A DNA stretch of 64,000 nt. It comes from Escherichia phage RCIP0363. Under the pieces are notes generated by a model. It ran no database searches. It worked only from the letters and a program-made list of their open reading frames with translations, and was not told where the DNA came from. Location of the stretch: sequence record PV464739.1. The stretch is one strand, 5' to 3'. Shown here in pieces: positions 63,783 through 64,000 of the stretch. Numbering within the stretch: the stretch's first letter is position 1; the number at the start of each line of letters is the position of its first letter. A program made the position numbers and the translations under genes.

Positions 63783-64000
63783 TTATTTCACTGCCTTTAG
63801 CGCGGCTATCTCTGCCTTGAGTTCATCTATTTGATCCATCAATGCAAGAATAGCCTCGTGGTGCAGCGCCGCAGCAACGCCGTAAGTGTCGACTGATTTG
63901 ATATTCTCGACAATTGTGCCATCCTTTAGTTCCGTGTTTGAATATTTCAAAGTCCTTACTGCATCAGGGAATACGCCTTCTACGTCTTGGGCGATAAAGC
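63783..64000 (-). CDS. Partial CDS: C-terminus of a tail fiber / tailspike with chaperone-like domain
   Basis: Manual translation of the minus strand gives ...FIAQDVEGVFPDAVRTLKYSNTELKDGTIVENIKSVDTYGVAAALHHEAILALMDQIDELKAEIAALKAVK, stop at 63783-63785; 5' end lies beyond the window. Confidence 0.4.
   Translation of the reverse strand, partial: FIAQDVEGVFPDAVRTLKYSNTELKDGTIVENIKSVDTYGVAAALHHEAILALMDQIDELKAEIAALKAVK

Follow-up and report, generated by a model that had tools for sequence, protein, structure and literature searches.

The edge of a 64-kb stretch of Escherichia phage RCIP0363 very probably carries the chaperone end of the variable Wifcevirus tail fibre gene

Intramolecular chaperone (IMC) domains, such as the CIMCD of the endosialidase endoNF and the related domains of MyRF and of pb1, the L-shaped fibre of phage T5, trimerise, template folding, cleave the chain after a serine by means of a Ser-Lys dyad, and are then released. 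Two tail fibres have been described in the myophage genus Wifcevirus, a conserved T4 gp37-like fibre and a variable one, which is treated as the receptor-binding protein recognising the O-antigen (Humolli et al. 2025, PMC11990801). In the predicted structures the variable fibre is T-shaped and comprises an N-terminal baseplate anchor, a Gp12-like receptor-binding domain (RBD1), a T5-like receptor-binding domain (RBD2) and a C-terminal IMC; horizontal transfer diversifies these RBDs and, less strongly, the IMC, and four BASEL Wifcevirus isolates (Bas98-101) were shown experimentally to depend on the O16 O-antigen (PMC11990801).

Here we analysed a stretch of 64,000 nucleotides from Escherichia phage RCIP0363 (PV464739.1), referred to below as the window. 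An earlier note, made from the letters of the window alone, had proposed that a partial minus-strand gene at its very end has a C-terminus like that of tail-fibre chaperones, and this is borne out by orthologues, a profile search and a fold search. We read the visible part of this gene, with a probability of about 0.93, as encoding the C-terminal 71 residues of the variable Wifcevirus tail fibre (the published 'T-shaped' fibre with dual receptor-binding domains), which make up most of its self-cleaving chaperone domain.

Wifcevirus myophages that infect E. coli and Shigella are collinear with the window. Twenty-eight records of the genus cover at least 80% of its first 20 kb, over which it shares 97.9% nucleotide identity with vB_EcoM-Ro157lw; the phage collection contained no identical record, none above 97.9% over the regions compared (20 kb) and none above 96.9% over the fragment. 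By these comparisons the window is the genome of a Wifcevirus-type E. coli myophage. It starts exactly at the ATG of the large terminase gene terL (1..1461), and the record is re-linearised at this point. For phage Mansfield, a direct terminal repeat of 3673 bp predicted by PhageTerm is annotated. Under collinearity with Mansfield this repeat would map to roughly 58.4-62.1 kb of the window (about 58450-62120, an approximate position), which would therefore place the physical genome end approximately 1.7 kb from the fibre gene.

At the opposite edge, a minus-strand frame is open from position 63998 through 71 codons (63786-63998) and is followed by TAA (63783-63785). The visible 3' end of the fibre gene (63783..64000, minus strand; 71 complete codons and the stop) amounts to 218 nt and is cut by the window edge, not by a start codon. 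The encoded fragment, FIAQDVEGVFPDAVRTLKYSNTELKDGTIVENIKSVDTYGVAAALHHEAILALMDQIDELKAEIAALKAVK*, reads FIAQDVEGVFPDAV at its start and LKAEIAALKAVK at its end; the hand translation given earlier (…TYGVAAALHHEAILALMDQIDELKAEIAALKAVK) is exact, as the program translation of 63783-63998 agrees with it. By comparison with orthologues, the gene would run about 2.1 kb past the edge, and in all 13 genus members examined an intact minus-strand gene of 763-788 aa occupies this position. In exact-pattern scans for the sequence past the edge, a 200-mer, a 41-mer and a 37-mer had no match in viral contigs, and the 41-mer had none in metagenome contigs.

With only 218 nt visible, the fragment could also be a truncated or pseudogenised 3' remnant, or an independent small ORF such as the 55-aa ORF with a TTG start listed at 63783..63950. 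Short proteins consisting of an S74 domain only do exist in databases: a protein search with the 71-aa fragment returned only proteins of 43-125 aa (P0001-P0020), the best of them an 81-aa metagenomic call with 93% identity, and no full-length protein. Many of these sit on contigs shorter than 2 kb and are, for this reason, probably cut gene calls. A remnant or a separate small gene is further at odds with the frame being open to the window edge, with the intact gene in 13 of the 13 relatives, and with the fact that the 71 residues differ from those of Ro157lw at four positions and show no sign of decay. We give this explanation a very slight chance. The 55-aa TTG ORF as a gene of its own was rejected as an artefact of the window cut, because the similarity to orthologues extends upstream of the TTG to the last base.

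All 71 residues match fibre families. The fragment was aligned to PHROG 6921 'tail fiber protein' with E=1.2e-19 (model positions 669-737 of 738), and TBLASTN matched it to the tail fibres of FEC19 and Ro157lw with E=7e-28; judged by these values, the match to tail fibres is far beyond chance. TBLASTN yielded 49 phage records, and nearly all of the 40 matches listed fall under tail fibre, tail or tail-tip annotations. The fragment is identical to Ro157lw and to FEC19 at 67 of 71 positions each, to EC150 at 65, and to the other ten orthologues at 24-52; at the nucleotide level, the identity to FEC19 and Ro157lw is 92-97%. The terminal 20 residues also have sub-threshold Pfam matches to ZapB, TolA_bind_tri, MerR_2 and GatC (E 0.07-0.18), as would be seen if the helix of the fragment were a generic coiled coil from a ZapB-, TolA- or MerR-like protein unrelated to fibres and resembled a chaperone only by coincidence. 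Those matches, however, span about 20 residues at 12-14 bits, far under the cut-offs, while the full fragment matches fibre families with E-values from 1e-19 to 7e-28 and its synteny is exact, and a coincidental likeness is thereby refuted. The ZapB, TolA, MerR and GatC matches were dismissed as noise of the terminal helix.

Against the Pfam Peptidase_S74 family (PF13884), the fragment alone scores 17.1 bits, below the gathering cut-off of 22 bits; the match is partial, because the window cuts the domain and only positions 44-58 of the 58 in the model lie inside. These last 15 positions correspond to the codons for FIAQDVEGVFPDAV(R) at 63954..63998 (minus strand). The first 15 residues of the fragment, FIAQDVEGVFPDAV, are its most diagnostic part and had been missed at the first reading. 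The search of the full protein against an S74 profile, suggested in the earlier note, was run on the close orthologues from Ro157lw and FEC19 in place of the RCIP0363 protein. These full-length fibres, which are 94% identical over the fragment, match PF13884 across the whole model with 49 bits (cut-off 22), and the ManiWeber orthologue scores 32.4 bits. PF13884 / IPR030392 is also named in the GenBank notes for the orthologues of WFC, vB_Eco4M-7 and Mansfield, the WFC note recording similarity to the ECML-117 tail fibre and a Peptidase_S74 domain.

A Ser-x4-Lys motif is found in 13 of 13 genus orthologues, 103-117 residues from the C-terminus; it reads TSDERVK in Ro157lw, FEC19 and EC150 and lies 110 residues from the end in Ro157lw and FEC19. 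Aligned with these orthologues, the fragment is the C-terminal ~65% (about two thirds) of an IMC domain of approximately 110 residues. The Ser-x4-Lys cleavage site of the RCIP0363 fibre would be located about 39 codons past the window edge, and the catalytic half of the domain would fall outside the window.

A profile built from the C-terminal 120 residues (A1, an alignment of 22 sequences) was searched against the PDB. It matched IMC domains of known structure: DT57C LtfA (8hqz, 1.6e-28), the ICA domain of MyRF (7dc3, 2.5e-14), a 'Long tail fiber distal subunit' (6f45, 7.1e-13), a 'Putative tail fiber protein' (8jov, 5.7e-11) and a 'Neck appendage protein' (3gud, 1.8e-4). We take 6f45 to be gp37 of phage S16, 8jov to be probably a Pbunavirus fibre and 3gud to be the neck appendage of phage GA-1. 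The alignments to 8hqz, 7dc3 and 6f45 cover the terminal helix as well. An AlphaFold2 model of the fragment based on 20 homologues (mean pLDDT 86.9) consists of a short helix, a beta-hairpin region and a 33-residue C-terminal helix. This long alpha-helix (fragment residues 38-70, 63789..63887 on the minus strand, pLDDT 90-97) holds the subtype-invariant AAALHHEAILALMD, and the stop codon follows directly after it, which puts it at the extreme C-terminus of the 71 residues; solved IMC trimers suggest, by analogy, that it would take part in a trimeric helical bundle. Foldseek of the model against the PDB matched three chains of the MyRF ICA domain 7dc3 (TMq 0.67, rmsd 2.5 Å, probability 1.00) with an E-value of 0.046, which is weak, the query being a short fragment; no other PDB target had a probability above 0.12, the next being 0.08. 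The resemblance to the terminal helix of an auto-cleaving intramolecular chaperone, recognised earlier by eye, is therefore upheld by the A1 profile, the AlphaFold2 model, Foldseek and the PF13884 matches of the orthologues.

The decapeptide AAALHHEAIL (fragment residues 42-51) does not vary among the 21 sequences that represent this IMC subtype in alignment A2 and that come from Wifcevirus, Enterobacter, Pantoea, prophage-like contigs of E. coli and metagenomes; it places two histidines at the start of the terminal helix. According to TBLASTN, the IMC subtype with invariant AAALHHEAILALMD also ends the fibres of podoviruses of ~75-76 kb (EP335, IMEP8, KarlSchell_Bas89), of phages of ~103-115 kb with ltfA-type fibres (DT571/2, FFH_1, phiAPCEc03, Kenya-K36), and of smaller phages such as mEpX2 and phiKT. 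KarlSchell_Bas89 belongs to Gordonclarkvirinae (PMC11990801).

The fibre gene is located on the minus strand between the region of small ORFs and the terminal repeat and the divergently transcribed terL, and in relatives it ends about 1.4 kb upstream of terL. Its position is syntenic with annotated tail fibre genes of Ro157lw, FEC19, WFH, ManiWeber, Mansfield and eight other phages, and the collinearity with Ro157lw, FEC19, WFH, ManiWeber and others extends to the small ORFs on its flank and to the downstream block. Most orthologues are labelled 'tail fiber protein', three records have 'hypothetical protein', and the SP13 record has 'endo-N-acetylneuraminidase'. The SP13 label would fit a gene for an enzymatic tailspike (an endosialidase or another depolymerase) with the same C-terminal chaperone, as would the first definition of S74/IMC domains on endosialidase tailspikes and the location of the upstream part of the RCIP0363 gene outside the window. 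Yet the closest full-length orthologues have no Pfam family at E<=0.01 except PF13884, and Pfam, PHROG and PDB searches revealed in them no glycosidase domain (sialidase beta-propeller or pectate-lyase-like beta-helix). Their best PHROG and PDB matches are fibres, including the R2-pyocin fibre and DT57C LtfA, to which the full-length Ro157lw orthologue is aligned with 1.7e-125 over the whole chain (406.5 bits over query positions 234-557); the N-terminus matches the tail fibre chain 8jov with 7.3e-08. The published predictions likewise give a T-shaped fibre with Gp12-like and T5-like binding domains (PMC11990801). An enzymatic tailspike is left with a slight chance. The label in SP13 (OP352608.1, SP13_015; extracted locus 820-3129) was not accepted, as the orthologues tested have no sialidase domain; it was probably carried over from the Pfam title 'Chaperone of endosialidase'.

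On the plus strand, the tail operon spans roughly 12.7-28.5 kb and includes a genus-conserved tail fibre gene at 26116..27903 (plus strand). Its product of 594 aa has eight HxH motifs distally, matches PHROG 5717 'tail protein' (E=1.5e-175) and shares 96.1% amino acid identity with ManiWeber Bas99_0031; it corresponds to the conserved T4 gp37-like fibre of PMC11990801. Since the tail operon already encodes this conserved fibre, the minus-strand S74 fibre is a 'second' one, in agreement with the earlier suggestion of a second fibre gene on the opposite strand. That it is far from the main tail operon holds in so far as baseplate genes are more than 20 kb away in both directions, but the distance is partly an effect of the linearisation at terL.

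The numbers used for the two ManiWeber fibres in PMC11990801, Gp114 and Gp32, differ from the locus tags Bas99_0109 and Bas99_0031 in GenBank PQ850618.1, and we paired Gp114 with Bas99_0109 and Gp32 with Bas99_0031 by domain content and position. In PQ850618.1, Bas99_0109 is the only S74 fibre (1202-3535 of the extracted locus), Bas99_0031 is the HxH fibre (12083-13867), Bas99_0032 encodes an endolysin and Bas99_0114 a hypothetical protein of 71 aa. In the window, a 912-aa ORF (23367-26105, plus strand) labelled 'hypothetical' in relatives separates the conserved fibre gene from the baseplate wedge gene; its N-terminus matches DUF2612 with 57.9 bits, and the ORF matches PHROG 4797 (unknown function). 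Its product is probably a baseplate or fibre-adaptor protein. Small ORFs (155-187 aa) are found just after the tail sheath gene (window 14295-14762 and 15713-17303, plus strand), and their counterparts are annotated as 'tail fiber protein' in RefSeq/BASEL records of relatives (23721-24188 and 25139-26729 in one extracted locus). Their size and position, the first being directly after the sheath gene, suggest that they may be mislabelled tail tube or assembly proteins.

In an alignment of 13 fibre proteins, the mean pairwise identity is 0.98 for residues 1-80, 0.35 for approximately 159-190, about 0.95 for 231-350 and 0.15-0.35 for most of 386-740; the N-terminal anchor, residues 1-110, which reads MPRLIFKNNFEVALAQP… in the genus, is ~98% conserved among the orthologues. 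On the comparison of these 13 orthologues, the variable fibre is a mosaic in which the N-terminal anchor is conserved and the receptor-binding and IMC modules are swapped, and because of this mosaicism the upstream domains of RCIP0363 cannot be taken from any single relative. FEC19 and EC150 are 98% identical to Ro157lw in the IMC and 80% in RBD2, whereas the WFH/ManiWeber type has 36% identity to Ro157lw in the IMC and 18% in RBD2. Within this sample, the IMC type travels with the RBD2 type; the RCIP0363 fibre is therefore likely to carry a distal domain of the Ro157lw/FEC19/EC150 type. The isolation hosts of Ro157lw and FEC19 were E. coli O157 strains. The upstream region of the fibre could also carry an RBD combination not described so far. 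The mosaicism, together with the published treatment of the variable fibre, supports the earlier proposal of an additional or exchangeable host-range determinant (PMC11990801).

The mosaic ends sharply. A genus-conserved island of ~120 nt (63702..63822, minus strand) comprises the last 12 fibre codons, the stop, a terminator, promoter-like hexamers (63757-63730) and the ribosome-binding site of the next gene. Among 13 Wifcevirus genomes, the mean pairwise nucleotide identity is 0.52 at 63823-64000, 0.88 in the last 12 codons, 0.95 at 63702-63785 and 0.76 at the start of the next ORF. The last 12 codons (L-K/E-A-E-I-A-A-L-K-x-x-K) are shared by every genus member, even between IMC subtypes with as little as ~35% amino acid identity; they are followed by an almost invariant terminator/promoter block of ~85 nt, directly after which comes a different variable module. 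The terminator-like hairpin, AAGGCGCT-GAAA-AGCGCCTT with a T-rich tail (63756..63775, minus strand), starts 8 nt past the stop; phage WFC has an annotated terminator at the homologous site. For many members of the genus, the megablast match to the window starts only at ~63817, which, together with the jump in nucleotide identity, places the 3' boundary of the exchangeable RBD2/IMC cassette, as seen in these alignments, inside the terminal helix of the chaperone. We consider it possible, though rather doubtful, that the island with its fixed junction is a preferred homologous-recombination arm for RBD2+IMC cassettes of unrelated phages (Gordonclarkvirinae, T5-like, lambdoid); in that case, chimeric joints would be tolerated in the terminal helix. 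Alternatively, the conservation at 63702-63822 may merely reflect regulatory constraint where the conserved backbone resumes.

The gene following the fibre has two forms. In the window, ECML-117 and RCIP0319 the fibre gene is directly followed by a 69-aa ORF (MEIKLLSDF…; PHROG 5649, unknown function), while Ro157lw, WFH, ManiWeber and Mansfield have an extra ORF of ~93 aa between the two. The 69-aa ORF is located at 63492-63701 (minus strand) in the window. When scanned against PHROG and Pfam, the minus-strand ORFs at 63495-63701, 63006-63398, 62804-62995 and 62328-62720 yielded families of unknown function or nothing; no function was found for the 69-aa or the ~93-aa ORF.

The probable mode of action of the fibre can be inferred from the well-studied family of the endosialidase endoNF, the T5 L-shaped fibre pb1 and MyRF. 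Three nascent chains would join via the IMC domain, with the long terminal helices forming a bundle, and the trimerised chaperone would template the folding of the adjoining distal receptor-binding domain. The Ser-Lys dyad (S-D-x-R-x-K), predicted just past the window edge, would then cut the chain after the serine. The chaperone, including everything encoded at 63786-63998, would be released and be absent from the mature virion. The mature fibre would be bound to the baseplate via the genus-conserved N-terminal anchor, and its two variable domains may recognise a surface glycan (O-antigen), which would make it an exchangeable host-range determinant, the conserved second fibre from the tail operon doing an invariant job.

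The finding itself is already known: a paper of 2025 describes the arrangement with two fibres, the IMC and the exchange of the binding domains by horizontal transfer (PMC11990801). The S74 domain of the Wifcevirus fibre has been in GenBank records since 2019, and the one detail of slight novelty is the conserved ~120-nt island, with its sharp limits, at the 3' edge of the cassette. Beyond correct annotation the result has little weight and leaves the current understanding unchanged. The fragment marks the end of the variable receptor-binding fibre, the host-range information being in the ~2.1 kb beyond the window. For engineering or typing of Wifcevirus phages, several of which infect E. coli O157:H7, it may be useful that this IMC subtype appears to travel with the distal domain of the Ro157lw/FEC19/EC150 type. 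The conserved N-terminal anchor and the 3' block of ~120 nt, which bound the cassette, could serve as practical landmarks for swapping receptor-binding modules.

The closest described counterparts are the fibres of Ro157lw (AVZ45661.1, 784 aa) and FEC19 (AYD85516.1, 778 aa), whose genes have the same strand and position as in RCIP0363 with respect to terL and the terminal-repeat region. The terminator and the downstream intergenic block are nearly identical in them, and Ro157lw is identical from the stop codon to ~63710. The RCIP0363 fragment has four substitutions relative to each of the two; at residues 15, 32 and 70 it matches neither, the changes including R for K and N for D, and the fibre ends with AVK in RCIP0363 but with SAK or AAK in Ro157lw and FEC19. 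In addition, Ro157lw has the 93-aa ORF after the fibre gene, which is absent from the window. The T-shaped fibre of ManiWeber/Bas99 is encoded by an orthologous gene with an IMC end, the same last 12 codons and the same downstream block as in RCIP0363, and in the comparison with ManiWeber the N-terminal anchor is ~90% identical among genus members. However, its IMC is of another subtype, identical to the fragment at 30 of 71 positions, and its RBD2 is only ~18% identical to that of the Ro157lw type.

Outside the genus, the C-terminal IMC of DT57C LtfA (8hqz) is homologous over chain residues 956-1074 (the profile match of 1.6e-28), but LtfA is a siphovirus fibre with a different N-terminal attachment part and an IMC of another subtype, which has a TSGIEYK motif and resembles that of phage Mansfield. 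The CIMCD of endoNF and of the GA-1 neck appendage (3gud; PF13884 / MEROPS S74) shares the G-F-I-A-Q-(D/E)-V-E…P-x-A-V strand and the terminal helix; there the IMC is carried by enzymatic tailspikes or appendages with triple-beta-helix stalks, whereas in Wifcevirus it is found at the tip of a non-enzymatic fibre. Finally, the MyRF ICA domain (7dc3) is the best structural match of the fragment model (TMq 0.67 and rmsd 2.5 Å over 66 columns) and follows the same logic of trimerisation and subsequent autocleavage, although MyRF is a eukaryotic membrane-bound transcription factor, 24% identical, with no tie to host recognition.
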